A stretch of 64,000 nt of DNA. Source: Elusimicrobiota bacterium. Its GTDB lineage: Bacteria > Elusimicrobiota > UBA8919. Location: contig JBFLWK010000002.1 in NCBI GenBank assembly GCA_040757695.1, positions 10,407 through 74,406 of the forward strand, in the 5' to 3' direction. Of this stretch, positions 3,433-61,639 are shown in pieces (positions within the stretch are counted from its first letter, which is position 1; each line of letters starts with the position of its first letter). The position numbers and the translations under genes are program-made. Under the pieces are notes generated by a model, which saw only the letters and a program-made list of their open reading frames with translations, was not told the DNA's origin and made no database searches.

Positions 3433-3495
3433 GGGACAATCCCCAATGCACTTTTGTCAAGTCCTTTAAAATAGTTCATTGTAGTGCGATTTTAT

Positions 3496-6333: not shown

Positions 6334-6398
6334 GAAAGACAGACGATAGACGTTAGTAGTAGCCGTCTACTCTCTCGTGTCTGATTTATTGGTGGTGT

Positions 6399-7646: not shown

Positions 7647-8135
7647 AATTGAGTTTTCATTCAAATTACAGAAATGCCTCTGATTATTTCGGAGTCATTT
7701 TTTTGTTTGCAATTTTTTTATTTTTTGAGGAAACTGGGGACGCTCCTAATTTTTGAGTGGATACAACTGGATTCCCGATTGAGGCACTCGGGAATGACAT
7801 AGCAGGACGCAGATTTGCGCAGATTATCAGGATTTTAAGTATCCAGACATTTCTGCGAGAATCAGCGTCCCCAAAAACCATTCGGGAATGACAAGTGAAG
7901 CAGGGAAACCCTGCAACTACATTTTGGTTTTAATTTCCTTCGTCCCCATTATCCCGTCCCCATTATCCCGTCGGTACTGAAGCCCCTAAAGGGCTGAAGT
8001 GCCGACTACATCCGAACTCATCCGAACTATTGCTTTTTGTTTTCCATTCCCCGCCTTATCTTTCCTTACAAAAATTTTACATTTCTCTAACCAAATTCTA
8101 ACACTCTTTCCTTATAATTATATTGAAAAAATCAA

Positions 8136-8192: not shown

Positions 8193-11100
8193 ATGAAAAA
8201 GACGCTGAAGTATCGGCTGCTTTTCCTTCTACCTTCTACCTTCTACCTTCTTACCTGTCTTTATGCTGGTTCGTCCTTGCATTATGTTAATCACTGGCAT
8301 GACCATCAGCCAATCTACTGGCCTAACAAAACACGCGCTTCATCTGCCAACCGATATGAATACGGAAACGAGACAATCAATAACAAAAACAATTCGCCTT
8401 ACGCAGGACATTCGTCTGTAGATGTTTTTGGTGTGTTTAATGTAGACGATAGAAAAGCCGCTTACCAGTATCGTTGTAAAGATGCACTTGGAACAATTAC
8501 TGGTTATCCTGAAGCAGGCTTTACTATTTCATATACAGGTGCGCTTGCAGAAAATGTGAAATCACTCGGTGACGCATATGCACTCGGCTATGGTCCTGAC
8601 TGGAACAATCCCTGGAAAGAAGCACGCGCTTGGACAACTTCTGGTGGAAAATCCAGGATGGATATTTTACTGACTGGTTTTCATCACCAGTTTTTTCCGC
8701 TTCTGCCCGACGATACATTAGCACGAAGAATAATTCAGTTATACAAACAGGGCTATCCTGAATGGTGGGGTACAACACCTTCACAATCTACTGGTTTCTG
8801 GCCAATGGAACTCGCATTTTCAGAGCGAATGATACCAACACTTCTATCAGAGGGTGTTACCTGGACTTATATTGCAAATAGCCATATCTCGCGGTGTATG
8901 CCGAACTGGCCTGCAACGCCCGGTAACGGAATGAATACAGAGCCGCCAAACAAAGCAGACCAGTATAATCCAAATGGTACTGCGGGATGGCGGAACGCAA
9001 CGCAAGATGGAAGACCCACAACTAATGATTTACGAGAGGCGTACAGACCTCATTATGCTAAATATATTGACCCTGAAACTGGCACAGCGTCAAAAATAAT
9101 AGTTGTTCCTTGCGGTGATTACGAAGGTTATATTGACGGTTATCAGACATTTGATGTTGGGCTTTTTGATGCAATTGCCGGCGCACAAGATGCAACACGT
9201 CCTGCCCTTGTAGTATTAGCACACGATGGAGATAACGCCTGGGGCGGTGGTTATGATTCTTATATGACCAATACACCACAGAAAGCAAGTGGTGCAAGTG
9301 CTCGGGGCTATACACCTTCACAGACATCACAGTATTTAGCAGACCATCCTGTACCTGTTAGTGATATCTGGCATGTTGAAGATGGTCCGTGGGTAAATGC
9401 AGCGGGTGATTTTGGCTCGCCTACTTTTTCAAACTGGAACTGGCCCTGGAAAAAGGATAATCTGCCAAATGCACCGACATTTGACTCAACCGCATGGGAT
9501 GATAATTCGCAATTCTGGGCAATTTTAACAGCAGGAACAAATCGCATTCTAACCGCTGAAAGTTATGTCGGCACTCCGAATATGGCAAATGTTTTACATC
9601 CAGACCAGACCACACCATCAAATATAGATTTAGCATGGCACTACTGGTTAGCAGGGTTTGATTCCGGACATGTTTATTACGGGACTGCCGAAGATTTTTC
9701 GTGGATACCTATTATCGCCATGAACAATGCGATGCCTTATTGCGATGCGATTATTGGCAGTGGCGAGATTACAGGTGCTGATACCGTTCCGCCAACTGTA
9801 TGGATACCGCAGAGATTTCCATATAATCCTGGCTCGTTGAATTATGGCTGTGCGTATAATTATAAGTCATTCAATTATCCGGCAGAGTTTGATGTGTACA
9901 GTTTTGTATATGATGCTTCTGGGCTTTCATCTGTAAAATTAAAATATAGAACAGCAACAGGTGCGAATACTACACCAATTGAGCCGGATAATTTTATTTA
10001 CGCAGGCGGAACAGCAGTAACCAGTTGGAATGAAATAAATATGTCTACAGGCACATGGACGGTAAAAGTTATGTTAAATGGAACCGAACAGATTCCTGCG
10101 CCTGTTACACCGAATTATATGCCTGTTAGATGCTGGGCACATGTCTCACCGGGTGCCAATAAACTTGTTGATTACTATATTGAAGCGACGGATAAAAAAG
10201 GCAATATCCGGAAAACAGCAATTCAACACTGCTGGGTTGGTGATGGCTCAGGTGCAGGTGGTGGTGGAACACAACTCTGGACACCAACAAATCCAACTGC
10301 AAGCGACCAAATTACTATTTACGGCTCTATTCTCGGCAAACCTGGCAAACTGCATTGGGGTGTTAATGGTTGGACACAGCCGTCATCAGAATACTGGCCA
10401 AGCAACTCCACAACAACCGTCTATGATGCACAATCAGTTGAGACGGTGATGCTGTTTGATGGAACTTCTTACTATATTACACTCGGTCCTTTCAACAAAA
10501 ACCAGGCAGTAAGCGAGTTAAATTTTGTATTCCATTGGGATGATGGCACCTGGGATAATAATGGTGGCGCAAACTGGAAAATTGCGATAAGCCCTGTGGA
10601 TACAACACCGCCGGCAAGCCCTCAACGACTGACTGCAACTGCAAAAAATACTGCAATTGACCTATCCTGGCAGGCGAATACAGAACCGGATTTAGCCGGT
10701 TACAATATCTATCAATGGTTCGTTTCAAGTTATGCTGTTCTCAATTCACAACTTGTAACATGGACAACTGGTTACACTGTCTCCCAACTAACAAACGGTA
10801 CAACTTACACATTTGTCCTAACCGCAAAAGATACTACTGGCAATGAAGCCGGATATTCTACATCTGTAACAACCTCGCCTGTAGCAACTGATACATTTGC
10901 ACCCCAAACACCAACCAACTTCTCAGTTTCAGGCGGTATTGAGAAAACAATCCTTAACTGGACCGCTAATCTTGAAACAGACCTATACGGCTACAGGGTC
11001 TACAGAAGCACATATACCAGTTCGTTCGCTCAAAAAGTTTTTATTGCAACAGTCACAGCACCATCTTATTCATATAATGATTCAGGACTAACTGCCGGGC

Positions 11101-14100
11101 TTACATACTACTATCAAATCACAGCACTTGATAATCTGTATAATGAATCATCTGCGACATCTGAAAAATACGGGCTTGCTCAATCGGTCCCACCGCCATC
11201 AGCACCAACCGGTCTTGTTGCAACACCCGGGAATGCAGAAGTGTACCTGAACTGGAACCCGAATACAGAAGCAAATCTCGCTGGCTACAATCTATACTGC
11301 TCGTCTGTCGGTGTATATTACAAAGTTAATACCGCGCTTATTACAGGTGCAACAACCTATTCGCATACTTCACTCACAAATGGTGTAACCTACTACTATA
11401 AACTCACCGCAGTAAATACTGTCGGAGGTGAATCGCAATTTTCAAATGAGGTTTCTGCAATACCTGCTGCGTTAGTGCCTGTTATTTTTCAGGTTGATAT
11501 GCGAGATATCGCAAATGTGACTTCCGTAAATATAGCAGGCGATATTTTAACGCCAGCATGGTCAGCAACTGCCAATCCGTTAACAAACCAATCAGGCACA
11601 CTTTCAGGTATCTGGAAAGTCACTATTAGTCTTGCTCAAAATGCAACGCTTAAATACAAATATACATATAATGGCGCGAATTGGGAGAACGATTTCGGTA
11701 CCGCACCGAATAACAACCGTCAAATTACAATCAGCCCGAATAATGCGAATTCTATGTATGTCTCAAATAAATGGAACATAGCAGGCGATGCGATACCTCT
11801 GGTTCCAACAGGGCTCACCGCAACAGGACAATTAGATAGCAAAATACTTGTAAAATATAACGCAAATACTGAGTGGGATTTACATGGCTACAACATTTAT
11901 ACAAGCAGTTATTCTTCAACAGTTGGCTATATCAAAAGTGTTTCTACAACAACCTCAACATCTTATTTGCTTTCCGGACTTGAGAATAACAATACATATT
12001 ATGTAAAAATAGAAGCACAGGATTTATCAGGACAGAAAAGCGGTATCTGCGGGCCGGTTTCTGCGATTGCGGGTGTTGATGACCCACCAGCAGTTGTCAC
12101 GGGCTTAACTGCGACTGCTAAAGATTCTGCAGTTGAACTGAAATGGTCTGCAAATACAGAATCCGATTTAGCCGGCTATTATGTATTCTGGTCAACAAAC
12201 ACAGGTGGTCCTTATTCAAGCACATCCACATTTATCTCGTCAACAACAGTTATCTATACCGCGTCACCATTAACAAACGGCACAGCATACTATTTTGTTG
12301 TCCGTGCATCAGATACCGTTGGGAATTTAAGTACAAATTCATTACAAGTAACTGCTACACCATCTTCTCAGCCAAGTTATGAAGAACGCACTATTGATGG
12401 CAGTTTCCTGGATTGGAAATTTTCTGATGTCAGGGCTCTGGATGCCTGTGAGGATACATATAATTTTTCAGATGGCTATGATTCTGCGAGAGATATTGTA
12501 GCACTTTATTCTCGTGAAGGCGTTAATAATTACTATTTCAGGGTTGATTTTCACGAGTTAGGGCTTTATGCAGAAAACGGCTATCTGGACTTGTATCTCG
12601 CTATTGATTGTGCAACAGGCGGACAGGTCTGGCTGCCTGATTATATGGACTGTCAGACGGACAAGCCGTGGGAAATATGTATCGCACTCTATAACGCTAC
12701 CTCTGCGAGTATTTACAAGAACGACTGGACGACGGTAAATACCGCATTCCAGGGTGCAAAATTTAATAGCCAGTATGACTCTGTAGAACTCGCAATCTCA
12801 AAATCAGCACTCACCGCTTACGGCTGGACACCCGGGACACCAATTGGGATTCAGACATTTTCAACAAAAGATGGAACCAATGGCGGAACCGGCGAAATTG
12901 CCGGTGCTTCTGATATTGTTGATGCCATTGAAGACGATGATAGGGGATATTCCGACGGTATTTTGAATGGAAACACACTTTCTACCGCATCAACTGGCAG
13001 GGCAAAATACGGATTTATTTATCACGGGAACCAATCACTGAATCTTGCGAATGATATTCGGGGCTGGATTTACACAACTTATCTTGACCATACACCAACG
13101 GGCTATCGGCGTGGGCTTGATACTATAGAAAATTTCGGTGTAAAAGGCAATATCCATGTAAGCGGAACTTTAGCAAGTGCGATACAGTGGGCAGACACTA
13201 CTTTCAATCAACGGATTGCTAATCTAACCTCTAACGGACAGACCGCGGTTATTGGTGGCGTGTTAGCAGAACATATGATGCCGTATTTTGAGGACTCCGG
13301 CGGCTATAATCCAAATTCGCGTGCGATACAAAATGGGACGGAGCTATTAACCTCTATATACAACCTCGCAATACAGCCAAAGGTCTTCTGGACTCCTGAA
13401 AGAGTAATCCGAGGACTGACATTCGCTGATATACTTACTAACCACGATACGGGACAGCCAACCGGTTATACCGCCACTGTATTAGACGACAAATACCATC
13501 TCAGGAACTGGTTTGCAATGCCGGATTCACAAAGATTCAAGTTGCATAAAATAAATGGTGTCTATGTGTTCCTAATTAACGGTGTCCGTGCAGATAGCGA
13601 GGCACAACCGGGCGATACCAATCAACTCACTTACGGCTACTACGACCCTGATGGCGCCAAATTCTGGAATCAGGACAACGGAATGCATATCGGAACCAGA
13701 AAATTATTGTTAGAAAGAGCGCAGGATTCAGACCAGGAACAACTTGTGCTCGTGTTTGACGATTGGGAAGCATATGCGGGCAGGTCATTCACTTCAGCAC
13801 TGCCAAACGATAACGCGGATAACTGGGATAAGACAATCGGCTGGGTTGCAAACCACCAGTGGATTGAGACGGTAACACTTGAAGATATTCTTTCACGCGG
13901 CTGGACACCAATAGACCACGGAACTAATACAACACTGCCAGTTGTCACATATGACTGGCTGATGCATGCCTGTGAGAACTCATATGACAACTGGTATAAC
14001 GGCACATCTCTGGAAGAAAGTTTCTTAAATCGTATCCCGAATGTGAAAGGCACTACCCCACTGCCATCAAACAAAAAATACGGGAATCTGGCAACTGCTG

Positions 14101-17100
14101 GAACTATTATTCGCGATACATGGAGTGATATTAAACTTGCTACTGCTACACAATTAAGCACACTGGCAGGTATGGTCTATAATACGCTTAACTACGAAAC
14201 CGCATGGCATGATGAAGATAATTCTGACAAGTTTTCAGCCGCGGATACAACATATGATACTATCTCCGGCTGGGCGTTGTATCTGCACGGACATATCAGG
14301 CATTCTTCAATAATTGCGAAAGCAGCACAATGGGCGAATGCGGTTTCTACTGGCGGGATATCTGCTAATACAGTTGCTCAATCGGTTGATTTAGATTCCG
14401 ACGGTGAATTAGAGCATTTGCTCTATAACAACAAGGTCTATTCCGTATTTGAAAAATACGGTGGACGAATGATAATGGGTTTTGCATATCAGCCAACCGT
14501 CGGGGTGGGGGGGGTACAACTTATCGGCGCACCTGCTACAAATTACGATAACGAAGGCGAAGAGGAATCAACCAGACATATTTCGGCATTCAGAGACGAA
14601 AATCTCGGTATCTATTGTAACGATACTTATTCTGTATCTGTCTGGACTTCGTCAATCACATTCACATCGTCCGATGGTAAAATCACAAAAATAATCTCAT
14701 TACCTGATAATTCAGATACATTAACCGCAAACTATACTCAAACACTTGGCACAAATCTTTATGTCAAATTCGGGCTTTCACCTAATGTCTATGATATGTA
14801 TTTTAACGGGAAACAGAACCTTTTAGATATTAGTTCTACAACATATATTGGACTGAAAAATACAGCCGGCGGTAGTGTCTATCTGGCACTTAACGGCGGC
14901 GCAACACTTAACTCGGCTTATACCGACGGAACAGCTGACAATACAAACGCAGCACATACACGGGTCTTTGAGGTTTATGGTGGTGCCAATTTTTCGGTAT
15001 CTCTCACGCTCTCGGGAACCTCTGCTGTTGACTCAACCCCACCTTCTGCGATTACAAATTTAGTTGCTACAACAGGCACAAACGATGGTGAACTTAATCT
15101 TACCTGGACTGCACCCGGTGATGATGGTACCGTCGGGAATAATACCACAGATGCAAAATACGAAGTAAAATTCGCAACCTACGGTGTGGTTGGCGGGAAC
15201 ATTGAAGGCTGGTGGACAACTGCAAATACATATTCGCAAAACTGGCCAGTTGCAAACTGCGGTGTTACAGAAACCAAAACACTCACAGGACTGAACCGCG
15301 CAACCTTGTATTTTGTCGGTATCAAGACAATAGATGATGCAAATAACAAATCAGATATAACAATTGTTGCGTCCGCTTATACACCTTCTGATACCATTCC
15401 ACCGTCGGCAATTACTACGCTGTCTGCATTAACAGGCGATAATTCAGGCGAAATAAAACTTTCATGGCTGGCACCCGGTAACGATGGCACCGTCGGAACT
15501 GCGTTAGGTTATGATATAAGATACTCTACTATTGCTTCTGTGTCACCTGCAATTTCTACATCAACATTTTATTCTGCAATCCCCTATCCCCTATCCCCTA
15601 TCCCCTCACCGTCAGGCACACAGGAAGTATTCACACTCACAGGACTTTTATACGGAACAACATATTATTTTGCAATAATTTCTAAAGATACAAATAATTA
15701 TTCAGCACTTTCTAACGGTGCAACCGCAGTTGCTAAACCAGATACTAGCCCACCTGATGCAATTACCACACTTTCTGCATTAACAGGAAGTTCAGTAGGC
15801 GCCGTGCAACTCCAATGGACCGCAACAGGAGATGATGGAACTGTTGGGGCAGTAGTAAATGGTAAGTGGCAAGTGGATTACAGTACAATTTCCAATTACC
15901 AATTCACAATTGACAATTACAAATTACAAATCACTACTTCCTACTCACCACTCACTAATCACTATTCACTAATCACTGGTTTAACCGAGGGTGATACATA
16001 CTACATTCGGCTCTGGGCGACTGATGAAGTGCCAAACTGGTCAGGGCTCTCTAACGCAGCAACCGCGCAGGCAAAAGTTGATGATATCGCACCTGCAATA
16101 ATTACTGACTTGACAGGATTTACAGGATTATCAGATGGCGAGGTTATATTGCAATGGACATCACCCGGCGACGATAACTGGTCTGGAAATTTAACCGGTC
16201 AATTTGAAATTCGCTACTCCACAGACCCTAATCTCTCAATCTCTCAATCTCTTAATCTCTCTACTTCCTCTGTTGCTCCCCTATCTCTTATCTCCTATCT
16301 CATATCTGATTTAACCGAGGGTTCAACTTACTATTTCAAGATAAGAACTGCTGATGATAAAAATAACTATTCTCAACTTTCAGGTGGAACGACTGTCCAA
16401 GTTGACCACACCGCACCTGCTGGAATTTCTAACCTGACTGCTTTAACAGGCACACTTGAAGGTGAAATTACTCTGAAATGGACTGCACCGGGTGATGATG
16501 GAACTGTCGGGACTGTTTCTGGCTATCTTGTAAAATATGCAACCGCACCTGTAACTACTAATACTTTTTACAATGCCACAAGCGTAGGGGGGGAATTAAT
16601 TCCCCCCCTACCATCGGGTAGTGAGCAATTATCTACAATAACTGGGCTTACACCATCCGCAACATACTATTTCGCGATAAAAGCACAAGATGATAAAAAT
16701 AATTGGTCTGTATGGAACTCATCGTTAGATGTCTCAGGAGTGAACACATCATGCATTGCAGCAGTCCAATCAATAATTCCTGCGGCAATCACAAACCTGT
16801 CGGCACTTTCCGGCACCGAAACAGGCAGTATCAAAATCACCTGGACTGCACCTTGTGAAGATGGGACTTACGGGAATGCAGTTGCTTCCTACGAGATTCG
16901 GTATGCTACTTATTCATTTGATGAGGCAGAGTTCTCACAGGCAACATATCTTACATATCCGCCAACACCAGCATCACCAGGAACAACCCAATCCATAACA
17001 ATCATAAATCTTACGCAGGGTGCACAGTACTATTTCAGAATAAAATCAAAAGATGATGCAAACAATATCTCACCGATAGATACAACATCTCCACAATCAA

Positions 17101-20100
17101 ATGCAATAGCAACAACTGGTGGGACACTTCCGAAACCACCTATATATATCGCTTTCCAGTGGCATATGCACCAGCCAATATACTATCCTTACGAAACCGC
17201 ACCGCAGACAGATGATAATGCAAGATATTCATTCAGTGTTGTCCATGTTCATAACGATAGAACAGGTCCTTATACCTCATGGCCCAATATGGCGATACAG
17301 AAAGGTGTTACAGCAGGGCTTAAACATCTCGGTGCGCAGGTCTCTTTCAGTGGCTCATTATCAGAAAATATAAATAATATCGTTGCAGCGGGCAGGGGAT
17401 TCTGGTCAGGTTGGCAGAATGATTATAAAACAGGATACAACTCGCTTACACAATCGGAAACAACAACGCCACCCGGTGCCGCAGGTCCCGGGGGAAATAA
17501 TCCACGACTTGACCTAATCGGGTTCGGATATCACCATCCTTTAATGGGGCTTGTTTCTTATTCCGATGTCAGAAAACAGATTCAACTCCACAGACAACAG
17601 CATTCAAATGTTTTTGGAATCACAAGTTATTCAAAAGGAATCTTCCCGCCTGAAAATGCATTCCGTCCTGAAATGATACCTGCACTTGTTGATGAAGGGA
17701 TACAATGGGTAATAGTTGACAATATCCATTTTGATAGAACGGTTCAGGGCTATCCGTGGAATTCTGGTGGGAATTTATACGAGCCTAATCCTTCTGACCA
17801 GATAAACAATCCGTCAGGCATAACATGGCTGCAACTTGTTAATCTCTGGGCACCGACAAAGGTCTCTGTGCCGTGGGGCTACAGACCGCATTATGTTCAA
17901 TACACAAACCCTGAGACAGGCATTTCTAAAAAAATTATAGCAGTCCCCGGCGCAAGATATGAAGGTAACGAAGATGCACGTGGTGGATTCGGTGCTTTAC
18001 TGTATGAAGCGGTGATGTCACAATATGAGGCATACAATACAGATGCACAGCATCCAATGTTAGTTGTTCTACCACATGATGGCGATAATTACGGTGGTGG
18101 TACACTTTCTTATTACGATTCTAACTTCCAGAATTTTGTCAACTGGCTTTTAGCAAACCCGTCAAGATTTGTCTGCACAACTATCCAGGACTATCTGGAT
18201 ATGTTCCCGCCTGACCCGAATGATATTATTCATGTTGAAAATGGCTCGTGGTCAGGTGCGGATAACGGCGACCCTGAATTCTTAAAATGGAACGGTGACC
18301 CCTCAAACGGATATTCACCTGATAGAAATTCATGGGGGATTGTTACTGCTGCAAAAAATCGGTTAGATACCGCAGAGTCAATTTTACCAGCAGGTTCAAT
18401 TACCGATATCCTGAATAATACCGGCAATAATACTGCAAAAGCATGGCATTATTATTATAATGGTCAGACATCGTGCTACTGGTATTGGGATGGAACAGAA
18501 ATATGGGATTCTAACCCGGCAAGAGCGTGTAATCTCGCGGTCTCATATGCAGACCAGGTGCTTGGTTCAACCCCTAATGATATTATAGCACCGACGATAT
18601 ACATCCCTCAACGAGAGCCGTACAACCCTGGTGGCACAGAATGGGGTGTGTTGAAACCATCAACCTTTACCGTCTGGACATATATTTATGACTTATCAGG
18701 ACTGAATTCGGTTTCATTAAAATACCGTGTTGATGCAGATGGTGTTCGCGATGGTGCTAATGACTTGTATTCAGGCGGGACATGGAATTCATTGACGATG
18801 ACAGGCACAACAGAGCCATCAAATACCAATCCCCAGCCAATGTATAAAGCACAAAAATTTTCTGCTGATATAATAGGGCAGTCAAACAAACTTATTGATT
18901 ATTATGTTGAGGCAACAGATACAAAAGGCAATCTCAGTAAATCACCAATTATTCATGTCTGGGTAGGACAGTCAACAACACCGGGGCAGACAACACTCTG
19001 GCAGCCATCAAACCCGACGAAAAATGATATTATTACTGTAAATGCCTCACAGACAAAACCTGGCAAACTTCACTGGGGCGTGAATAACTGGACACTCCCA
19101 AATTCTGCATACTGGCCTTCAGGAACTGTTGATTACGGTGATGGTAAATCAGTAGAAACACCGCTACTTTTAAGCGGTTCTTCATATTATATCCAAATCG
19201 GTCCTTTTAATAATCCTATACAGCAAGTAACAGAGATTAATTTTGTATTCCACTGGGATGATGGTTCTTGGGATAATAATTCAGGACAGAACTGGAAAAT
19301 ACCGGTTGATAATACAGTTATTTCTACACCAACGGTAAATATCACATACCCTGCAAATAATTCGTCGGTCAGTGGCTCTACTGTGAATGTTACCGCATCC
19401 GCAACTGATGATATCGGTGTTACAAGGGTAGAATTTTATTACAAAATATCAACCGATACCGTCTGGACAATTATTTCAACAGTAACCGTTACACCTTACA
19501 GCACTTTCTGGAATACGCTATCACCCCCCCTTGCCGAAGATAAACAGTATATTCTTATTGCAAAGGCGTATGATGCTGACGGAAATTATGGGATTTCTCC
19601 GGAAGTAACAGTGCGTGTGAACAATACAAACTCTGCACCGACGATTACTGTGACATCACCTAATGGCAGCGAGATTTGGGCTGGTTCACAAAATATTACA
19701 TGGACAACTAACGATACTGATGGTGATACATTGTTGATTACACTACAACAGTCAACACAAACCGCGGCAGGCACAAACTGGATAAATATAATTGTCGGGA
19801 TGAATAATCTTGGCAGTTATGTATGGAATACAACACTGGTTGCGGATGCGACGAATTATTTAATTCGTGCTATTGCAACAGACCCCGGCGGACTTACAGG
19901 GCTGGATATTTCAGACGGGATATTCAGAATAAGAAATACGGATACCGAGGCACCATCAGCAATCACTAATCTGTCTGCGTTACCCGGTACTTACGGCGGT
20001 CAGATTCAATTAACATGGACTTCGCCAGGTGACGATGGCACAGTAGGGGCAATTCAAAATGGGGAATTCAAAATTCAAAATTCTACATGGACAGAAGTTA

Positions 20101-23100
20101 TTTGGTCAACAACAAATGCACAGATTAGTATTTCCACATCTGTTACCGCACTTTCCAATATAAATTACACACTCGCTGGCTTAACACCTGGTGATACATA
20201 TTATATCCGTATCTGGACTGCCGATGAATCGGCAAACTACAGCGATATCTCTAACTCAGCAACCAGTTATGCAAATACTGATACAGGCGTAACCTATCAT
20301 CCTGTCAATGTTGATGGCACAATTTCTGAATGGTCTGACCTAAAAGAAAAAATGGATACTTATACCGGTACAACATTTTATTTTACATGGTCGTCAACTG
20401 CAATATATTTCTCAGCCGCTGGGACTCAACCTGAGGATTTTTTTGTGTTTATTGATACTACACCTAATTACGATACAAACGAGGGCTCTACAACATATTC
20501 TAATGGGACTTGGGATGGCTTAAATCATAAACTTCCTTTTAGGGGAAATGTTTCAGTTGCGATGGAAGTGGGTGCGGCTGCTTACTGGGAGATGAGAAAT
20601 TACACAGGCGCTTGGAATAGTGTGCCTTATACATCTGCAGGACCAACAGGCGGAATAGAATACAGTTTTTCAGGCACAAATTCGGAAATGGCTGTTCCAC
20701 TGAGTATAATTGGCAATCCATCTGCAATAAAAGTTGTCGCATTCGCAAAACGAGAAAGCACAAAAGCAGCCTATAAAGCATTCCCGGCTGAAAATACCGT
20801 TAGTGATAGCGGTGATGATAATTTAAGTTGGTATTATAATTTTGCTCAACTTACTTCTGGTAAAAATCCTAACGATGCACCTCATATAAATACTGCAACG
20901 CAAGACCCGTCAGCACCCTGCGCAATCACTAATCTTGCGGCAACTTCCGGCGATACAGCCCCAGCTGCCGACGATTACGGAAAAGTCACTTTAACCTGGA
21001 CAGCACCGCCTGAAGATGGAACCTACGGCACTGCGGTTTCGTATTATATTGTAAGATACAGAACTGATGGTGCTGTTAGTGACTCAAACTGGGCGACTGC
21101 AACAGATGTTTCAGGCGAGCCGGTACCTTCTGCACCGGGTACAAATCAGACATTTGTCGTCGATAATTTAACAGCCGGTACACTTTATTACTTGGCAATA
21201 AAATCAGTTGACGATGCTTCAAAAACATCAGATTTAGATACATCTTCACCAAGACCCTCTGCAAAAGCAGGTGTAACATACCACAATATCAATAACATTG
21301 ATGGAAACATTTCTGACTGGTCTGCATTTAGTGAATTGGTAGACAACGACAATCGCAACGGCGGGAATAAATCATTATACATTACATGGTCGTCAACCGC
21401 AGTATATTTTGCTTATGGTAATAACAAATTTAACGATATGGACTTGTTCATTTTGATAGATACTCATACAAATTATGATACTGCAATTGGGACAAAAACA
21501 CCGCCGGGCGATTGGGATGGAATGCCACAACACTCACTTCCTTTTTATGCAGATTATTCTTTGTCAATTGAAGGTAGTGCCTGGAAAACACTTGACAGAT
21601 GGAACGGTTCTGCATGGGTTAATGATGGGAATGGTGCTAATATTTTCGCATCATCTATAAATGATGCAACCGCAGGTGGGAATTCGGAAATTGCAGTTTT
21701 GCGTTCCGCACTTTCAAACCCAACGCAACTTCGTATTATGTCTGTTCATAAATGGGATACTGCGAAAAATGTTTTTGCATCATTCCCGATAGAAAACCCG
21801 GCACCGAATACAGATACTGCAGTTACATTTACACATTTCTATGTTCTGAATTTGACAGATAGCGAGACACCTTCATCCGCACAGGTGGTCTCTTCAAACG
21901 ACCCAACACCACCATCAGCAATAACAACACTTTCAGCACTGCCAGGCGATAATTCAGGTGAGATAAAATTAAGTTGGCTCGCACCTGGTGATGACGGCAC
22001 AATAGGGCAGATAGTAGATGGCAGCTGGGAGATAAGATACTCAACAGTCCCTAATCTCTCAATCTCTCAATCTCTTAATCTCTCTACTTCCTCTGTTGCT
22101 CCCTTATCTCCTATCTCCTATCTCCTATCTGACTTAACACCCGGCGATACTTACTACTGCCAGATACGCGCCGCCGACGATGTCGGTAACTGGTCAGCAC
22201 TCTCTAATACAGCAACAAGTTATGCGCAAGTAGCAGGACCGCCGGCTGGCTCATTCACACCGGTGATTGATGGAATAAAAGACAGTCAGTGGGGTGGGAC
22301 ACCGAATGCAACCTCTGTGAATTACAAACTGCCCGCTGATTATGCACGCGATGTTTATGTAACAAACGACCAGGCATATCTGTATATCGGCTTCCAGTTC
22401 AAAGGCGACCCCTGGGACGATACAAAATCGGCACATTATAACTTCTTGATAGATACACAGACAACACAAGGTACCGCAACCGACCCGTGGGTTGCTACAA
22501 CACAAGTTTCGTGGAACAATAAGCCGGATGCGGCAGTCAACGGCTGGGTCAATGGTATCACAGCGAATAGTTTCGGTGGTATGCTCAGATATGTCTCTGA
22601 CGGCACAAACTGGGATGGTGGGACAACTCTATTCACTGGAATAGATTTTTCATCATCAAAAAGCAATGATTGGGCAGAGTTCCGTCTACCACTGAATATA
22701 CTCAAAGTCCAGCCGGGTAGCTCAATAAATATAATTCATCTGTTCCGACCTGACGAGACAAAATTAGGTGTCTCTGATTCTACACCTTTTGACTCTTCTG
22801 GCTGTAATGATTACGGGAATGCAAACTCAACAATTTCGTCATCGTTTACTTATACACTTCAAGGTGTAGGTGATACTACAGCACCAAGTGCAATCACAAC
22901 ACTTTTAGCAACACAAGGCGATACAGAAGGAATGCTGAAACTCGCTTGGGCTTCTACCGGTGATGATGGGATATCTGGAACAATTCAACTCGGCGAATTC
23001 AGAATTCAATACTCAACATGGAGTGATGTTTTATGGTCAACCGCTTCCGCACAAGTTATTATCTCAACTTCTGTTGCTCCTTTATCTCCTATCTCCTATC

Positions 23101-24557
23101 TCCTATCTGGTTTAACTGCTGGTGATACATATTACTGCCGTGTCTGGCTTGCGGATGAAGTACCGAACTGGTCATCAATTTCAAACGCCGCAACCGCGTG
23201 GGTCCAGGTTGATGTAACACCACCGGCAGAAATTACAGCGTTTTCAGCATCACCAGGTCAAACAGAAGGTAATATCCTGCTCAAATGGACATCGCCAGGC
23301 GACGACGGTACCGTTGGGCAGATAATAGATGGGCAATGGGAGATAAGGTATTCTACCGACTCTAACTTAACCACTTATTCACTTATTCACTTATCCACTT
23401 CTAATGTCGTTCCACTCACTACTCGCTACTCTACAATCACAGGGCTTGAGAGTGGCAAAACATATTATTTTGCATTAAAAACATATGACGAACGAAATAA
23501 TCCATCTGAACTATCAAATACTGCAACATCTTGGGCACAACTTGATATAATAGCACCTTCTAAGATAACTGACCTGTCTGCACTGACTGGCGGAAATACA
23601 GGCGAAATTCAACTTTCATGGACCGCACCCGGTGATGATGGAACAGTCGGTACAGCAAGTTATTATGATATAAGATACTCTACCGTTAGTGCAAATTCAC
23701 CTGCGATATCAATCATAACATTTTATTCTGCTATCCCCTATCCCCTATCCCCTATCCCCTATCCTTCAGGGACACAAGAATCATTAACGCTCACAGGACT
23801 TACACCCGCGGTAACATATTATTTTGCAATAAGAACAGGTGATGAATCATCTGAGTTTAAACAGATAAACTGGTCTCTGATTTCTAACGGTGCTACAACA
23901 TATGCCAAACCGGATATTATCCCGCCTACCACAATAACTACACTTTCAGCACTTACTGGAAGTTCAGTTGATACTGTTAGATTACACTGGATTGCACCTG
24001 GTGATGATGGTACCGTCGGAAATATTACAGGCGGTAAATACGAGATAAAATACTCATCTAACCAGTCGGACACTTGGGCGACTGCACCGTATTCAATCCT
24101 GTTTGATACAAATACTGTAAGCGGAACTGAAGAGTCAAGAATTATTACAGGGCTTACTTCCTCAAATACATATTACTTCTGGATAAAAACAAGAGATGAA
24201 ATCGCTGATAATTGGTCAGATGCATCTGCACAGGTACTCGGAATACGAGCATATTTAAACCTTACAGTTGATAAAACAAAATCGGTTGATTCTGCACTGC
24301 CCGGTGAGACGATAACTTATACAATCACACTCGGAAATACCGGAAGTATTCCGGCAACAGATGTAGTTGTAAAAGATAAGATACCACAGAATTGTGAATA
24401 TCAGTCCGGTAGTATCCGTTTGAATGGTATTAGTAAAACGGATGCTGTTGACGGTGACGAAGCGGATTATAGTTCAGGAATTGTTAATGTTAACCTTGGA
24501 ACAATAAACGCTGGAATAACAGGACAGACAGTAAAATTTGATATTAAAATTCAATAA
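8193..24557 (+). CDS. giant (5454 aa) secreted multi-GH57 alpha-glucan-active surface protein with CBM20/CBM25-like, CBM9-like, many FN3 and Ig-like domains and a C-terminal DUF11 domain
   Basis: Signal peptide LLTCLYAG. GH57 module 1 (~8270-9800): HDHQP, FHHQFFPLL, WPMELAF, LAHDGDNAWGG. GH57 module 2 (~17150-18700): HMHQP, PPENAF, LPHDGDNYGG. Degenerate module 3 (~13000-14600): WTPERV. LHWGVNGW...WDNN (CBM25-like) x2; IFQVDMRD...YKYTYNGANWE (CBM20-like); >20 FN3 repeats (APSAIT-L-A-G--GEI-L-W-APGDDGTVG). Confidence 0.85.
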   Translation: MKKTLKYRLLFLLPSTFYLLTCLYAGSSLHYVNHWHDHQPIYWPNKTRASSANRYEYGNETINNKNNSPYAGHSSVDVFGVFNVDDRKAAYQYRCKDALGTITGYPEAGFTISYTGALAENVKSLGDAYALGYGPDWNNPWKEARAWTTSGGKSRMDILLTGFHHQFFPLLPDDTLARRIIQLYKQGYPEWWGTTPSQSTGFWPMELAFSERMIPTLLSEGVTWTYIANSHISRCMPNWPATPGNGMNTEPPNKADQYNPNGTAGWRNATQDGRPTTNDLREAYRPHYAKYIDPETGTASKIIVVPCGDYEGYIDGYQTFDVGLFDAIAGAQDATRPALVVLAHDGDNAWGGGYDSYMTNTPQKASGASARGYTPSQTSQYLADHPVPVSDIWHVEDGPWVNAAGDFGSPTFSNWNWPWKKDNLPNAPTFDSTAWDDNSQFWAILTAGTNRILTAESYVGTPNMANVLHPDQTTPSNIDLAWHYWLAGFDSGHVYYGTAEDFSWIPIIAMNNAMPYCDAIIGSGEITGADTVPPTVWIPQRFPYNPGSLNYGCAYNYKSFNYPAEFDVYSFVYDASGLSSVKLKYRTATGANTTPIEPDNFIYAGGTAVTSWNEINMSTGTWTVKVMLNGTEQIPAPVTPNYMPVRCWAHVSPGANKLVDYYIEATDKKGNIRKTAIQHCWVGDGSGAGGGGTQLWTPTNPTASDQITIYGSILGKPGKLHWGVNGWTQPSSEYWPSNSTTTVYDAQSVETVMLFDGTSYYITLGPFNKNQAVSELNFVFHWDDGTWDNNGGANWKIAISPVDTTPPASPQRLTATAKNTAIDLSWQANTEPDLAGYNIYQWFVSSYAVLNSQLVTWTTGYTVSQLTNGTTYTFVLTAKDTTGNEAGYSTSVTTSPVATDTFAPQTPTNFSVSGGIEKTILNWTANLETDLYGYRVYRSTYTSSFAQKVFIATVTAPSYSYNDSGLTAGLTYYYQITALDNLYNESSATSEKYGLAQSVPPPSAPTGLVATPGNAEVYLNWNPNTEANLAGYNLYCSSVGVYYKVNTALITGATTYSHTSLTNGVTYYYKLTAVNTVGGESQFSNEVSAIPAALVPVIFQVDMRDIANVTSVNIAGDILTPAWSATANPLTNQSGTLSGIWKVTISLAQNATLKYKYTYNGANWENDFGTAPNNNRQITISPNNANSMYVSNKWNIAGDAIPLVPTGLTATGQLDSKILVKYNANTEWDLHGYNIYTSSYSSTVGYIKSVSTTTSTSYLLSGLENNNTYYVKIEAQDLSGQKSGICGPVSAIAGVDDPPAVVTGLTATAKDSAVELKWSANTESDLAGYYVFWSTNTGGPYSSTSTFISSTTVIYTASPLTNGTAYYFVVRASDTVGNLSTNSLQVTATPSSQPSYEERTIDGSFLDWKFSDVRALDACEDTYNFSDGYDSARDIVALYSREGVNNYYFRVDFHELGLYAENGYLDLYLAIDCATGGQVWLPDYMDCQTDKPWEICIALYNATSASIYKNDWTTVNTAFQGAKFNSQYDSVELAISKSALTAYGWTPGTPIGIQTFSTKDGTNGGTGEIAGASDIVDAIEDDDRGYSDGILNGNTLSTASTGRAKYGFIYHGNQSLNLANDIRGWIYTTYLDHTPTGYRRGLDTIENFGVKGNIHVSGTLASAIQWADTTFNQRIANLTSNGQTAVIGGVLAEHMMPYFEDSGGYNPNSRAIQNGTELLTSIYNLAIQPKVFWTPERVIRGLTFADILTNHDTGQPTGYTATVLDDKYHLRNWFAMPDSQRFKLHKINGVYVFLINGVRADSEAQPGDTNQLTYGYYDPDGAKFWNQDNGMHIGTRKLLLERAQDSDQEQLVLVFDDWEAYAGRSFTSALPNDNADNWDKTIGWVANHQWIETVTLEDILSRGWTPIDHGTNTTLPVVTYDWLMHACENSYDNWYNGTSLEESFLNRIPNVKGTTPLPSNKKYGNLATAGTIIRDTWSDIKLATATQLSTLAGMVYNTLNYETAWHDEDNSDKFSAADTTYDTISGWALYLHGHIRHSSIIAKAAQWANAVSTGGISANTVAQSVDLDSDGELEHLLYNNKVYSVFEKYGGRMIMGFAYQPTVGVGGVQLIGAPATNYDNEGEEESTRHISAFRDENLGIYCNDTYSVSVWTSSITFTSSDGKITKIISLPDNSDTLTANYTQTLGTNLYVKFGLSPNVYDMYFNGKQNLLDISSTTYIGLKNTAGGSVYLALNGGATLNSAYTDGTADNTNAAHTRVFEVYGGANFSVSLTLSGTSAVDSTPPSAITNLVATTGTNDGELNLTWTAPGDDGTVGNNTTDAKYEVKFATYGVVGGNIEGWWTTANTYSQNWPVANCGVTETKTLTGLNRATLYFVGIKTIDDANNKSDITIVASAYTPSDTIPPSAITTLSALTGDNSGEIKLSWLAPGNDGTVGTALGYDIRYSTIASVSPAISTSTFYSAIPYPLSPIPSPSGTQEVFTLTGLLYGTTYYFAIISKDTNNYSALSNGATAVAKPDTSPPDAITTLSALTGSSVGAVQLQWTATGDDGTVGAVVNGKWQVDYSTISNYQFTIDNYKLQITTSYSPLTNHYSLITGLTEGDTYYIRLWATDEVPNWSGLSNAATAQAKVDDIAPAIITDLTGFTGLSDGEVILQWTSPGDDNWSGNLTGQFEIRYSTDPNLSISQSLNLSTSSVAPLSLISYLISDLTEGSTYYFKIRTADDKNNYSQLSGGTTVQVDHTAPAGISNLTALTGTLEGEITLKWTAPGDDGTVGTVSGYLVKYATAPVTTNTFYNATSVGGELIPPLPSGSEQLSTITGLTPSATYYFAIKAQDDKNNWSVWNSSLDVSGVNTSCIAAVQSIIPAAITNLSALSGTETGSIKITWTAPCEDGTYGNAVASYEIRYATYSFDEAEFSQATYLTYPPTPASPGTTQSITIINLTQGAQYYFRIKSKDDANNISPIDTTSPQSNAIATTGGTLPKPPIYIAFQWHMHQPIYYPYETAPQTDDNARYSFSVVHVHNDRTGPYTSWPNMAIQKGVTAGLKHLGAQVSFSGSLSENINNIVAAGRGFWSGWQNDYKTGYNSLTQSETTTPPGAAGPGGNNPRLDLIGFGYHHPLMGLVSYSDVRKQIQLHRQQHSNVFGITSYSKGIFPPENAFRPEMIPALVDEGIQWVIVDNIHFDRTVQGYPWNSGGNLYEPNPSDQINNPSGITWLQLVNLWAPTKVSVPWGYRPHYVQYTNPETGISKKIIAVPGARYEGNEDARGGFGALLYEAVMSQYEAYNTDAQHPMLVVLPHDGDNYGGGTLSYYDSNFQNFVNWLLANPSRFVCTTIQDYLDMFPPDPNDIIHVENGSWSGADNGDPEFLKWNGDPSNGYSPDRNSWGIVTAAKNRLDTAESILPAGSITDILNNTGNNTAKAWHYYYNGQTSCYWYWDGTEIWDSNPARACNLAVSYADQVLGSTPNDIIAPTIYIPQREPYNPGGTEWGVLKPSTFTVWTYIYDLSGLNSVSLKYRVDADGVRDGANDLYSGGTWNSLTMTGTTEPSNTNPQPMYKAQKFSADIIGQSNKLIDYYVEATDTKGNLSKSPIIHVWVGQSTTPGQTTLWQPSNPTKNDIITVNASQTKPGKLHWGVNNWTLPNSAYWPSGTVDYGDGKSVETPLLLSGSSYYIQIGPFNNPIQQVTEINFVFHWDDGSWDNNSGQNWKIPVDNTVISTPTVNITYPANNSSVSGSTVNVTASATDDIGVTRVEFYYKISTDTVWTIISTVTVTPYSTFWNTLSPPLAEDKQYILIAKAYDADGNYGISPEVTVRVNNTNSAPTITVTSPNGSEIWAGSQNITWTTNDTDGDTLLITLQQSTQTAAGTNWINIIVGMNNLGSYVWNTTLVADATNYLIRAIATDPGGLTGLDISDGIFRIRNTDTEAPSAITNLSALPGTYGGQIQLTWTSPGDDGTVGAIQNGEFKIQNSTWTEVIWSTTNAQISISTSVTALSNINYTLAGLTPGDTYYIRIWTADESANYSDISNSATSYANTDTGVTYHPVNVDGTISEWSDLKEKMDTYTGTTFYFTWSSTAIYFSAAGTQPEDFFVFIDTTPNYDTNEGSTTYSNGTWDGLNHKLPFRGNVSVAMEVGAAAYWEMRNYTGAWNSVPYTSAGPTGGIEYSFSGTNSEMAVPLSIIGNPSAIKVVAFAKRESTKAAYKAFPAENTVSDSGDDNLSWYYNFAQLTSGKNPNDAPHINTATQDPSAPCAITNLAATSGDTAPAADDYGKVTLTWTAPPEDGTYGTAVSYYIVRYRTDGAVSDSNWATATDVSGEPVPSAPGTNQTFVVDNLTAGTLYYLAIKSVDDASKTSDLDTSSPRPSAKAGVTYHNINNIDGNISDWSAFSELVDNDNRNGGNKSLYITWSSTAVYFAYGNNKFNDMDLFILIDTHTNYDTAIGTKTPPGDWDGMPQHSLPFYADYSLSIEGSAWKTLDRWNGSAWVNDGNGANIFASSINDATAGGNSEIAVLRSALSNPTQLRIMSVHKWDTAKNVFASFPIENPAPNTDTAVTFTHFYVLNLTDSETPSSAQVVSSNDPTPPSAITTLSALPGDNSGEIKLSWLAPGDDGTIGQIVDGSWEIRYSTVPNLSISQSLNLSTSSVAPLSPISYLLSDLTPGDTYYCQIRAADDVGNWSALSNTATSYAQVAGPPAGSFTPVIDGIKDSQWGGTPNATSVNYKLPADYARDVYVTNDQAYLYIGFQFKGDPWDDTKSAHYNFLIDTQTTQGTATDPWVATTQVSWNNKPDAAVNGWVNGITANSFGGMLRYVSDGTNWDGGTTLFTGIDFSSSKSNDWAEFRLPLNILKVQPGSSINIIHLFRPDETKLGVSDSTPFDSSGCNDYGNANSTISSSFTYTLQGVGDTTAPSAITTLLATQGDTEGMLKLAWASTGDDGISGTIQLGEFRIQYSTWSDVLWSTASAQVIISTSVAPLSPISYLLSGLTAGDTYYCRVWLADEVPNWSSISNAATAWVQVDVTPPAEITAFSASPGQTEGNILLKWTSPGDDGTVGQIIDGQWEIRYSTDSNLTTYSLIHLSTSNVVPLTTRYSTITGLESGKTYYFALKTYDERNNPSELSNTATSWAQLDIIAPSKITDLSALTGGNTGEIQLSWTAPGDDGTVGTASYYDIRYSTVSANSPAISIITFYSAIPYPLSPIPYPSGTQESLTLTGLTPAVTYYFAIRTGDESSEFKQINWSLISNGATTYAKPDIIPPTTITTLSALTGSSVDTVRLHWIAPGDDGTVGNITGGKYEIKYSSNQSDTWATAPYSILFDTNTVSGTEESRIITGLTSSNTYYFWIKTRDEIADNWSDASAQVLGIRAYLNLTVDKTKSVDSALPGETITYTITLGNTGSIPATDVVVKDKIPQNCEYQSGSIRLNGISKTDAVDGDEADYSSGIVNVNLGTINAGITGQTVKFDIKIQ

Positions 24558-24583
24558 AAAAAATAGGGACGGAGGAAACTGAA

Positions 24584-25570
24584 ATGAAAAAGGTATTGTT
24601 GATAGTAACATTGTTGGTTTTTGGTGTATTAGGGTTCGCGGGTCTTGGAAATGCACATGGGACACAGGCAGGCACGGTTGTCTCAAATGGTGGCGATACA
24701 GGAACTGCCGGAACGGTTGATACAGCAGGTGATACGATTGTGACTTATACAAACGGTCCTGCAAACGGAATCAGTCCAACCGCAGTCACTGTAATTGTAT
24801 CAACAGGTTATGCGATTGCGAATCTTCCAACACCTAATGACCAGACGGTATTGGCAGGCGCTACTGCATATTTTGCATATACCATCTGTAATATCGCGAA
24901 TTCAACTGATACATTTACACTGGCTGCGGCATCTGTTCCTGTAACAGGTCAGCAGGAATGGCTACCAATTATCTATGCGGATGATGGTGCAGGTGGCGGA
25001 ACTGCGAATGATGGTGTCCATCAGAATGGTGAAACGAATACAGTTACCAATACAAGCCAATTTTTTACAAATACATCGTATTACTTTTTTGTAGCGGTTC
25101 CTGTACCATCCACAGCAGTAGATGGCTCTTCAACAACTGTTCGGCTTACTGTTAAGGATAAAAACGGTGACGGCACAGAAGATAACTGGCCAGCCGCTGG
25201 AGATGATACACGCACAGATGATACGATTACTATCTGTTCGGTTGCAGTGCTTACTATTACAAAATCAACAGATGTTGCGTCTGCCAGACCCGGTGAACTT
25301 GTAGAATATACAATTGTTGTAACTAATAACGGCACAGGTGCAGCAAGTAATGTTGTTGTGAAAGACAAGATACCTGCAAATGCAACATTCAATGCGGACA
25401 GTTATGCAGCGGGTTATGGTGTTCAACTTGACGGCGTGAATAAGACGAATGCTAATGATGGTGATGAGGCAGATTACAATGTTACCACTGCGGATGCGAT
25501 TACTGTTAATATCGGCACTATCAATGCAAGTAGCAGTAAGACAGTGAAGTTTAAGGTCCAGATAAATTAA
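24584..25570 (+). CDS. secreted DUF11 (conserved-repeat domain) protein
   Basis: 328 aa; signal peptide; C-terminal LTITKSTDVASARPGELVEYTIVVTNNG...VKDKIP matches the DUF11 pattern and the C-terminus of the giant protein. N-terminal domain paralogous to 25638 ORF. Confidence 0.6.
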   Translation: MKKVLLIVTLLVFGVLGFAGLGNAHGTQAGTVVSNGGDTGTAGTVDTAGDTIVTYTNGPANGISPTAVTVIVSTGYAIANLPTPNDQTVLAGATAYFAYTICNIANSTDTFTLAAASVPVTGQQEWLPIIYADDGAGGGTANDGVHQNGETNTVTNTSQFFTNTSYYFFVAVPVPSTAVDGSSTTVRLTVKDKNGDGTEDNWPAAGDDTRTDDTITICSVAVLTITKSTDVASARPGELVEYTIVVTNNGTGAASNVVVKDKIPANATFNADSYAAGYGVQLDGVNKTNANDGDEADYNVTTADAITVNIGTINASSSKTVKFKVQIN

Positions 25571-25581
25571 AAGGTATAAAA

Positions 25582-25609
25582 GGTAGTCGGCAATTAATTG
25601 CCGACTACC
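25582..25609. repeat. REP family-1 perfect palindrome GGTAGTCGGCAATTAATTGCCGACTACC
   Basis: 28-nt perfect dyad, GTAG 5' end, AATTAATT centre; same family as the RAYT-flanking palindromes. Confidence 0.8.
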
Positions 25610-25637
25610 AGTCAGGCAAGAATAATAAAATTGGATT

Positions 25638-29279: not shown

Positions 29280-29440
29280 ACAACGCGGATTCCCGCTGAT
29301 TTGTCATTCCCGAATGCCCCTGTCGGGAATCCTTGTTTTCACGTGGACAGGTTCTACTCCTTTAATGGATTCCCAATAGAACCATTTGGGAATGACACCT
29401 CCGATAGAGTCATTCGGGGGCAGATTTTGTGTCATCTGCG
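29280..29440. repeat. GTCATTCCCGA / TCGGGAATGACA dispersed hairpin-repeat cluster
   Basis: Several attcccg-N-cgggaat hairpins; related copies at 2400-2520, 7770-7900, 35430-35540, 36490-36600. Confidence 0.6.
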
Positions 29441-35399: not shown

Positions 35400-35570
35400 C
35401 GCAGATGAACGCAGATATACGCAGACGCCGTTCCCGTCCCGTATGTGTCATTCCCGCGAAAGCGGGAATCTACGGGATAAACTCCAGCGGGAATCTACAA
35501 TTATGGATTCCCGATAGAGACACTCGGGAATGACACTTCGTGTCATCTGTGTTCTCAGTGTTCTCTGTGG
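35400..35570. repeat. left arm of ~150-bp inverted repeat (ACGCAGAT iterons + GGGAATGACA hairpins)
   Basis: Near-identical reverse complement of 36461-36655. Confidence 0.8.
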
Positions 35571-36456: not shown

Positions 36457-36460
36457 AAAA

Positions 36461-36655: not shown

Positions 36656-36658
36656 AAT

Positions 36659-37468: not shown

Positions 37469-37476
37469 GGGGGATT

Positions 37477-53053: not shown

Positions 53054-53116
53054 ATAATGTAGCCACCGAATTTATTCGGGGGTGAGCGAAGCGAATAATA
53101 AGTTCGTGGGGAAGTT

Positions 53117-61636: not shown

Positions 61637-61639
61637 AAA

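Follow-up and report, generated by a model that had tools for sequence, protein, structure and literature searches.

The window analysed here is a stretch of 64,000 nucleotides from an Elusimicrobiota bacterium (contig JBFLWK010000002.1, positions 10,407 to 74,406). It harbors a single open reading frame (ORF) of 16.4 kb (8193..24557, forward strand, as for all the domains described below), which starts with ATG, contains no internal stop and encodes 5,454 aa plus stop. This megaprotein carries three modules of the glycoside hydrolase family 57 (GH57) type, hereafter A, B and C, and is probably an exported multi-enzyme devoted to the breakdown of alpha-glucans at the cell surface. An open frame of 5,454 codons in DNA of ~42% GC cannot result from chance, and the ORF, which the initial annotation had already described as a single one, is a real, single gene whose giant product looks secreted. 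Thr, Ser, Gly, Ala and Asn abound in the product, whose N-terminus (MKKTLKYR, a hydrophobic stretch, then LYA/GSS) resembles a signal peptide when read by eye (MKKTLKYRLLFLLPSTFYLLTCLYA followed by GSS, 8193..8267), and the TCLYAGSSLHY stretch found there is kept in an orthologue from another species.

Downstream of this putative signal peptide, module A (aa ~30-800, 8280..10592) comprises a GH57 catalytic region, beta domains and a C-terminal PF23166-like HWGVN module (aa ~700-800). It is followed by three short FN3 domains (aa 801-1093, 10593..11471) detected by both an in-protein hidden Markov model (HMM) and Pfam fn3, a CBM20 starch-binding domain (aa 1093-1196, 11469..11780; Pfam PF00686) and two further short FN3 found with the in-protein HMM (aa 1197-1392, 11781..12368). 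Module B, which spans aa ~1393-2266 if its N-terminal domain is included, begins with a beta-sandwich characteristic of its family and predicted by AlphaFold2 (AF2) and Foldseek to have a CBM74/glucodextranase-like fold (aa 1393-1600, 12369..12992). The rest of module B (aa 1601-2266, 12993..14990) consists of a divergent, predicted GH57-fold catalytic domain, a helical region and a C-terminal beta domain. Six long FN3 (aa 2278-2972, 15024..17108; in-protein HMM and Pfam) separate it from module C (aa 2985-3712, 17145..19328), in which a GH57 catalytic region and beta domains precede a PF23166 domain (aa 3609-3705, nt 19017-19307).

Beyond module C, two Big_7-type Ig-like domains (aa 3713-3910, 19329..19922; Pfam PF17957, E = 2e-15, two stretches) are followed by three modules of ~200 aa, X1 (aa 4030-4235, 20280..20897; fold unknown), its paralogue X2 (aa 4359-4567, 21267..21893) and X3 (aa 4685-4891, 22245..22865). 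Each of them is preceded by one long FN3 recognized by the in-protein HMM (aa 3915-4029, 19935..20279; aa 4236-4358, 20898..21266; aa 4568-4680, 21894..22232). Four more long FN3, also found with this HMM (aa 4892-5354, 22866..24254), lead to a C-terminal DUF11/CLIPPER domain, a CnaA-like Ig domain (aa 5357-5454, 24261..24554; Pfam PF01345). With a profile built from the repeats of the megaprotein itself, we counted 18 FN3 (5 short and 13 long) rather than the more than 20 proposed initially. Altogether, FN3 and Ig spacers make up about 40% of the chain.

Such a repetitive architecture raises the question of an artefact, i.e. at least three separate genes (A, B, C and FN3-rich ones) fused by mis-joined or collapsed FN3 DNA or by a frameshift. 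The 18 FN3 repeats, some pairs of which reach 67% identity at the protein level and 70-90% over short DNA stretches, speak for it. However, the DNA repeats inside the ORF do not exceed 87-90% identity over 42-70 nt and 70-78% over 176-300 nt. Since near-identical repeats long enough to mislead an assembler are absent, the sequence does not invite misassembly, collapse or chimera. Furthermore, an independent metagenome-assembled genome (MAG) of another species, a GTDB genome labelled Ignavibacteria (JBGFRZ010000009.1, locus L003), contains an ORF that stays open over more than 4,146 aa, as far as the retrieved locus extends. In a single frame, this ORF aligns collinearly with aa 2-4044 (58.7% identity), crosses all the junctions of the A-FN3-CBM20-FN3-B-FN3-C series, and retains HDGDN twice, PERV and FDDWE. 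Two other relatives, P0291 (3,459 aa) and P0292, are collinear across the A-to-B part. The 3' junction is reproduced exactly by a Logan contig assembled from public short reads (SRR29635779_5813, L001), which is 100% identical to positions 23733-27019, including the 3' end of the ORF. Assembly breakpoints within the ORF, which had been named as a possible objection, thus found no support; misassembly was rejected, and the artefact is hardly credible.

Modules A and C both match PF03065 (GH57) above its gathering score of 21.2 bits, as expected from the two well-conserved GH57 modules announced in the initial annotation, and their motifs lie where it had placed them. Module A scores 43.1 bits in a 2,800-aa segment and 31.9 bits in an 800-aa segment (aa 35-227), and module C 54.5 and 58.6 bits (aa 2987-3180; best E = 8e-16). 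In both cases, the match covers profile positions 1-174 of 291 only. Module A displays HWHDHQP (aa 34), WPMELA (aa 203) and HDGDN (aa 344), whereas module C displays WHMHQP (aa 2990), PPENAF (aa 3152) and HDGDN (aa 3295). The putative nucleophile and acid/base are E206 (nt 8808-8810) and D345 (nt 9225-9227) in A and E3154 (nt 17652-17654) and D3296 (nt 18078-18080) in C. Motifs resembling the conserved sequence regions (CSR) of GH57 are readable in A and C, respectively, as HQPIY in both, MDILLTGF and RLDLIGFG, WPMELA and FPPENA, HDGDN in both and AWHY in both; such motifs are traceable in module B as well.

The only solved structure reached by sequence from module C is the 4-alpha-glucanotransferase of Thermococcus litoralis (1k1w; E = 5e-4 over 77 residues). 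In this alignment, E3154, the Glu of PPENAF, whose equivalent in module A is E206, faces the Glu of WLTERV, which is Glu123, the nucleophile of this enzyme (PMC5347038). Among 20 homologues of module C, this Glu is invariant (E175 of the alignment) and the Asp of HDGDN is nearly so (D317, at least 90%). The closest relatives of module C are proteins of ~1,000 aa from Ignavibacteria/Bacteroidota, which share with it 55-63% identity along its whole length (730 aa) as well as the GH57 plus PF23166 layout, and most of which end with a type A sorting domain of the type IX secretion system (T9SS). The latter indicates that the A/C-type subfamily is typically secreted, and the premise that GH57 enzymes are mostly intracellular does not hold for it. 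Modules A and C, which share 37% identity over ~790 aa, can be regarded as bona fide GH57 modules, the pair reading as an old duplication or an independent acquisition and not as a recent repeat.

Module B differs from A and C. It contains FIYHGNQ (aa 1608), WTPERV (aa 1733) and FDDWE (aa 1855), with E1736 (nt 13398-13400) as putative nucleophile and D1857 (nt 13761-13763) as putative acid/base. Its PF03065 score remains below the gathering score (16.1-16.5 bits vs 21.2, E = 0.006-0.007), no NCBIfam model matches it (nor A or C), and a single-sequence search of the PDB gave no match. Module B belongs to a family with at least 247 matches in Sumerlaeota, Planctomycetota, Kiritimatiellia, Eisenbacteria and other taxa, typically proteins of 1,000-1,150 aa that bear the annotation hypothetical. 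The profile of this family does not match any PDB sequence. In 25 homologues, H-x-N-Q (HGNQ), PERV and FDDWE are invariant, as are E147 and D267/D268 of the alignment (aa 1736 and 1856/1857). PF03065 matches six of these 25 members at E <= 0.01 (best 4e-12), while PF23166 is present in four of the 25 and a CBM20 in one. A full-length hhalign comparison between the A/C and B families retrieved only the shared PF23166 module. When trimmed to the catalytic parts, the alignment is collinear but weak (E = 0.003, probability 10%), pairing PPENAF with TPERVI, the HDGDN of the A/C family, with its Asp, with the FDDWE of module B, and the AWH motifs with each other.

The AF2 model of module B, built from 25 sequences, is confident, with a pLDDT of 87 and a pTM of 0.90, and its five best Foldseek matches are all GH57 enzymes: the 4-alpha-glucanotransferase 1k1x (E = 4e-20), the amylopullulanase SmApu (7e1y) and the branching enzymes 1ufa (TT1467), 3p0b and 5wu7. 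Global TM-scores with GH57 structures are 0.32-0.39, low as expected for multi-domain superpositions, and identity is 12-14%. GH38 mannosidases come next at ~5e-11 and a polysaccharide deacetylase at 2e-6. Alternatively, module B might not be an alpha-glucan enzyme, but act like a GH38 alpha-mannosidase or a polysaccharide deacetylase or have no catalytic role, the megaprotein then having two GH57 modules and one unrelated module. This would also agree with the sub-threshold Pfam score and with the occurrence of the family in Planctomycetota and Kiritimatiellia, which attack many glycans. However, GH57 structures lead the fold search with E-values better by nine orders of magnitude, ahead of both GH38 and the deacetylase, the two alternatives raised with the initial annotation. 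The predicted strands 142-144 and 262-268 end just before or at the invariant Glu of PERV and Asp-Asp of FDDWE, which would suit the nucleophile and proton donor of a GH57. In addition, some family members pass PF03065 and carry PF23166 or CBM20, and B modules are repeatedly fused to A-type GH57 modules. It is therefore unlikely that module B is not an alpha-glucan enzyme. The third, divergent GH57 module initially proposed thus stands by its fold and by its WTPERV motif, but not by its Pfam score. According to the model and the alignments, module B would be a genuine but divergent catalytic module of the GH57 clan, belonging to an uncharacterised family.

Several modules of the megaprotein point to starch or related glucans as ligands. 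The CBM20 recognized in the initial annotation reaches 27.2 bits when aa 1093-1196 are scanned alone (gathering score 23.3, E = 3e-6), while it falls below threshold (20.9 bits) inside a 2,800-aa segment. The HWGVN...WDNN modules had been labelled CBM25-like. No CBM25 profile matches them, and Pfam instead assigns the one of module C to PF23166 (Ig_N_CWD1, the N-terminal Ig-like domain of alpha-glucan water dikinase) with an E-value of 3e-10. The N-terminal domain of module B has no Pfam or PDB sequence match. Its AF2 model (aa 1393-1600, pLDDT 84) resembles a domain of the Arthrobacter glucodextranase 1ug9 (E = 7.5e-6, TMq 0.64) and also CBM74, the starch-binding module of Ruminococcus bromii Sas6 (7uwv, E = 7e-5), a CBM9 (7nwn) being reached only at E = 8e-3. 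The CBM9-like label is not upheld either: neither X1-X3 nor this domain has a CBM9 Pfam match at E <= 10, and none was found elsewhere in the protein. X1, X2 and X3 lack any Pfam match, searches of PDB sequences with X1 and X3 were negative, and no homologue of X1 was found in a database of 5.8 billion proteins. X1 and X2 share 36% identity and show a weak collinear hhalign match with the N-terminal domain of module B (for X1, E = 0.004, probability 9%), whereas X3 has no significant similarity to X1, X2 or this domain.

A phmmer search of 1.84 billion cluster representatives retrieved 709 relatives, none of which has two A/C-type modules. The three-module chain is found so far in the window and in the JBGFRZ MAG, and probably also exists in the organism encoding P0292, a contig-truncated fragment of 1,722 aa that is 80% identical over aa 1-1716. 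P0291, from a MAG labelled Caldiserica, is collinear with aa 1-2884 at 42-49% identity and its C-terminus gives a weak match to the type B T9SS sorting domain CHU_C. Its locus (L004 10001-21240, ENA ERZ27227314 k141_597384) shows partial synteny with the window: the P0291 gene comes after one for a LacI-family regulator and before a 288-aa PorV/UPF0164-like gene and one for a response regulator, PorP/PorV-like genes being among its neighbors. More generally, two-module proteins of 1,975-3,459 aa combining A (or C) with B are encoded by MAGs that bear the labels Caldiserica and Sumerlaeia as well as by unlabelled metagenomes. The A+B fusion recurs in at least five other protein clusters of different phyla, i.e. 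P0291, P0327/NUP89474.1 (2,058 aa, Sumerlaeia), P0328, P0342 and P0261, and such recurrent pairing argues for functional cooperation. Three catalytic modules in one chain are rare, whereas single secreted GH57 proteins of ~1,000 aa with a T9SS domain are common. The rarity attributed to the locus in the initial annotation was overstated in this respect, as well as with regard to the A+B fusions seen in several phyla. The named relatives only carry 'hypothetical' or 'GH57' labels, the sole plasmid homologue being labelled GH57, and the MAG labels of the close relatives are inconsistent (Ignavibacteria, Elusimicrobia, Caldiserica, Dependentiae).

The C-terminus of the megaprotein is the DUF11 domain that had been noticed from the outset (PF01345, profile match at aa 5357-5443; 34.6 bits, gathering score 24.6). 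DUF11 has been renamed CLIPPER and corresponds to a CnaA-like domain found in the stalks of surface proteins (PMC12617251). No T9SS sorting domain, either type A (PF18962) or type B (CHU_C), was detected on the megaprotein. Just downstream, on the same strand, a cassette of three genes (24584..29266) encodes possible partners for anchoring or secretion. The first protein (328 aa) ends with a DUF11 domain 46% identical to the tail of the megaprotein, and its N-terminal domain is 45% identical to that of the product of the next gene. The latter, located two genes downstream of the megaprotein gene, is a 731-aa protein in which this N-terminal domain is associated with fn3 and a weak CHU_C match. 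The third (478 aa) is a PorV/PorQ-like barrel with TPR. This pattern of shared domains suggests a modular tethering chain, the link of the cassette with the megaprotein being drawn from adjacency and shared domains only. Genes encoding a histidine kinase and a response regulator follow the cassette.

Other large surface proteins of the window are organized in a comparable way. In 3484-7646 and 50222-58054, large surface proteins are each followed by a paralogous PorV-like/UPF0164 barrel or barrel plus TPR gene (6399-7646, 53117-54157 and 56537-58054). The first of these large proteins (949 aa) is of the SBBP/PKD type, another (943 aa) has a PorZ/PorU-like C-terminal domain and a third (707 aa) combines fn3 with a weak CHU_C match. 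Two tandem genes encoding GGDEF diguanylate cyclases, one with GAF (58107-60657), lie between these surface-protein cassettes and a pair of ATP-binding cassette (ABC) permease genes.

The window also encodes a second giant, the GH13 megaprotein of 2,787 aa (39523-47886) that the initial annotation had reported as adjacent. The three sugar ABC loci it had listed are indeed of the sugar type but partial: a gene for a solute-binding protein at 1021, genes for permeases and a solute-binding protein at 35581-38877 and genes for permeases at 60686-62598. No separate CBM20-containing protein was found among the ORFs of the window, contrary to what had been reported. The neighborhood, with its GH13 giant, sugar-type binding proteins and permeases and two-component regulator, is compatible with the alpha-glucan harvesting island that had been proposed, whereas surface location and activity are presumed.

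Around the GH13 gene, the 416-aa product of 48604-49854 has no Pfam match and is a paralogue, 32% identical, of the C-terminal end of the GH13 megaprotein (aa 2483-2770). Three genes encode IS200-like Y1 transposases (Pfam Y1_Tnp; 38975-39559, 47954-48526 and 62656-63210), two of which are 76% identical. Two of these genes flank the GH13 gene, the first one overlapping its start. Moreover, the 12-mer TCGGGAATGACA is present in nine copies with at most one mismatch (0.25 expected), at 7788-7799, 7882-7893, 29302-29313, 29386-29397, 35446-35457, 35524-35535, 36504-36515, 36582-36593 and 55072-55083. The copies are mostly intergenic, form inverted pairs ~80 nt apart and resemble a repeat family of the repetitive extragenic palindrome/bacterial interspersed mosaic element (REP/BIME) type. 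In view of this family, the Y1 transposases may be REP-associated (RAYT-like).

With a probability of about 0.7, we propose that the megaprotein is an exported, surface-tethered multi-enzyme for the breakdown of alpha-glucans. It would be exported by the Sec pathway, associate with the cell surface and act on an insoluble or polymeric alpha-glucan (starch, glycogen or a pullulan-like polymer). Three retaining glycosidase modules of the GH57 clan would be borne by one chain. A and C would be paralogous amylase-type modules, each followed by its own PF23166 glucan-binding module, while B, with a CBM74/glucodextranase-like beta-sandwich in front of it, would represent an uncharacterised family of its own with the GH57 fold. 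Attachment to the polymer would be ensured by the CBM20 and the other binding modules, and the 18 FN3 and two Big_7 domains may serve as spacers allowing the three active sites to reach neighboring chains. The modules presumably differ in bond or product specificity and might act in synergy. The C-terminal DUF11/CLIPPER domain, with the products of the three downstream genes, would tether the enzyme to the outer surface, and the malto-oligosaccharides released would then be imported by the neighboring ABC systems.

Several observations are consistent with this proposal. The putative nucleophile Glu is invariant in the alignments of the A, B and C families and the putative Asp is invariant in B and nearly so in A/C. 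An alpha-glucan theme runs through the CBM20, the PF23166 of module C and of four of the 25 B-family members, the CBM74/glucodextranase-like domain, the GH13 giant and the sugar ABC genes. A secretion theme appears among relatives, with the T9SS domain of most module C homologues and the weak CHU_C match of P0291. The protein could also be viewed mainly as a giant adhesin binding alpha-glucan-coated surfaces or other cells, with vestigial or lectin-like modules in place of active enzymes: FN3/Ig spacers occupy ~40% of the chain, a CLIPPER end is typical of the stalks of fibrillar adhesins (PMC12617251) and GH57 "like" groups without catalytic residues exist (PMC6037648). However, both candidate catalytic residues and the motifs are kept in A, B and C, in the 59%-identical orthologue and in distant fusions, which makes an adhesin with inactive modules quite improbable.

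Other points weigh against a surface multi-enzyme acting on alpha-glucans. The activity of A, B and C is deduced from sequence, fold and context. The characterised enzyme nearest to A and C is only the marginal PDB match to 1k1w, so that amylase, pullulanase and transferase are all candidate specificities. Module B fails the Pfam threshold for GH57, its family profile reaches no PDB sequence and its alignment with the A/C family is weak. Since the B family is common in Planctomycetota and Kiritimatiellia, it may have a different alpha-linked substrate. As for export and anchoring, the signal peptide is putative and proposed from reading by eye, no C-terminal T9SS domain can be recognized on the megaprotein, and the CHU_C and PorV-like matches of its neighbors are below curated cut-offs.

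A GH57 enzyme is defined by a (beta/alpha)7 barrel with a helical bundle, a nucleophile Glu of CSR-3 at beta4, a proton-donor Asp of CSR-4 at beta7 and five CSR in all, and average lengths in the family are 362-814 aa (PMC6037648). The three modules show or plausibly share these features, save the PF03065 threshold for B; the barrel fold of A and C is presumed, and the catalytic Asp of all three modules and Glu of module B are candidates. The likeness to the CAZy GH57 enzymes 1k1w/1k1x lies in the Pfam signature, the alignment with the Glu of WLTERV and the predicted three-part fold of module B, made of an incomplete TIM barrel, a helical region and a C-terminal beta domain. Identity of the megaprotein modules to the solved structures is very low, the fold search giving 12-14% for B. 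GH119 is a small sister family of GH57. In its member IgtZ, an alpha-amylase of Bacillus circulans, Glu231 and Asp373 are reportedly 142 residues apart, compared with 139-142 in A and C, which is a lead rather than a test. By CAZy criteria, A and C may fall in either GH57 or GH119.

Among uncharacterised relatives, the Ignavibacteria/Bacteroidota proteins mentioned above (P0133, P0168; 'T9SS type A sorting domain-containing protein' at NCBI) have the catalytic-beta-PF23166 order of module C, module A being a more distant member (37%). They have one catalytic module and a T9SS domain, whereas the megaprotein has two such modules plus a third from another family and a DUF11 end. The A+B enzymes share the order of A/C-type GH57, FN3/Ig spacers, B N-terminal domain and B catalytic module, but lack the third (C) module, X1-X3 and the DUF11 tail, P0291 ending instead in its weak CHU_C. 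To our knowledge, nearly all surface amylases that combine several catalytic domains with many CBMs belong to GH13. These GH13 giants follow the same design logic as the megaprotein, such as bifunctional bifidobacterial amylase-pullulanases, MaAmyA of Microbacterium aurum, with FN3, CBM25 and CBM74, and Sas6 and the amylosome of R. bromii (PMC5715617, 7uwv): catalytic and starch-binding modules spaced by FN3, exposure at the surface, granular or resistant starch as substrate and a CBM74-like fold. However, they contain GH13 catalytic domains and reach 1,400-2,000 aa, whereas the megaprotein relies on catalytic modules of the GH57 clan in a chain about threefold longer.

A bolder and more speculative proposal, which we consider doubtful at present, is that module B founds a new GH family, sister to GH57 and GH119, marked by HGNQ, PERV and FDDWE, by an obligatory CBM74-like N-terminal domain and by a specificity complementing that of the A-type amylase. 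According to the same proposal, the C-terminal DUF11 and the downstream proteins would form a new modular system hanging giant enzymes on an outer-membrane anchor of the T9SS type. If this were true, complementary alpha-glucan specificities of A and B would explain their repeated fusion.

If the megaprotein acts as we propose, the locus would reveal, in an uncultured lineage, a multi-catalytic surface-amylase strategy that relies on modules of the GH57 clan, in a protein threefold larger than usual. Moreover, fusion, co-occurring binding modules and fold tie module B, and with it a large family of "hypothetical proteins", to alpha-glucan metabolism. This family thereby gains a testable functional hypothesis and named putative catalytic residues, which we regard as the most valuable by-product of the analysis. 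The individual modules are also candidates for new starch-converting specificities.

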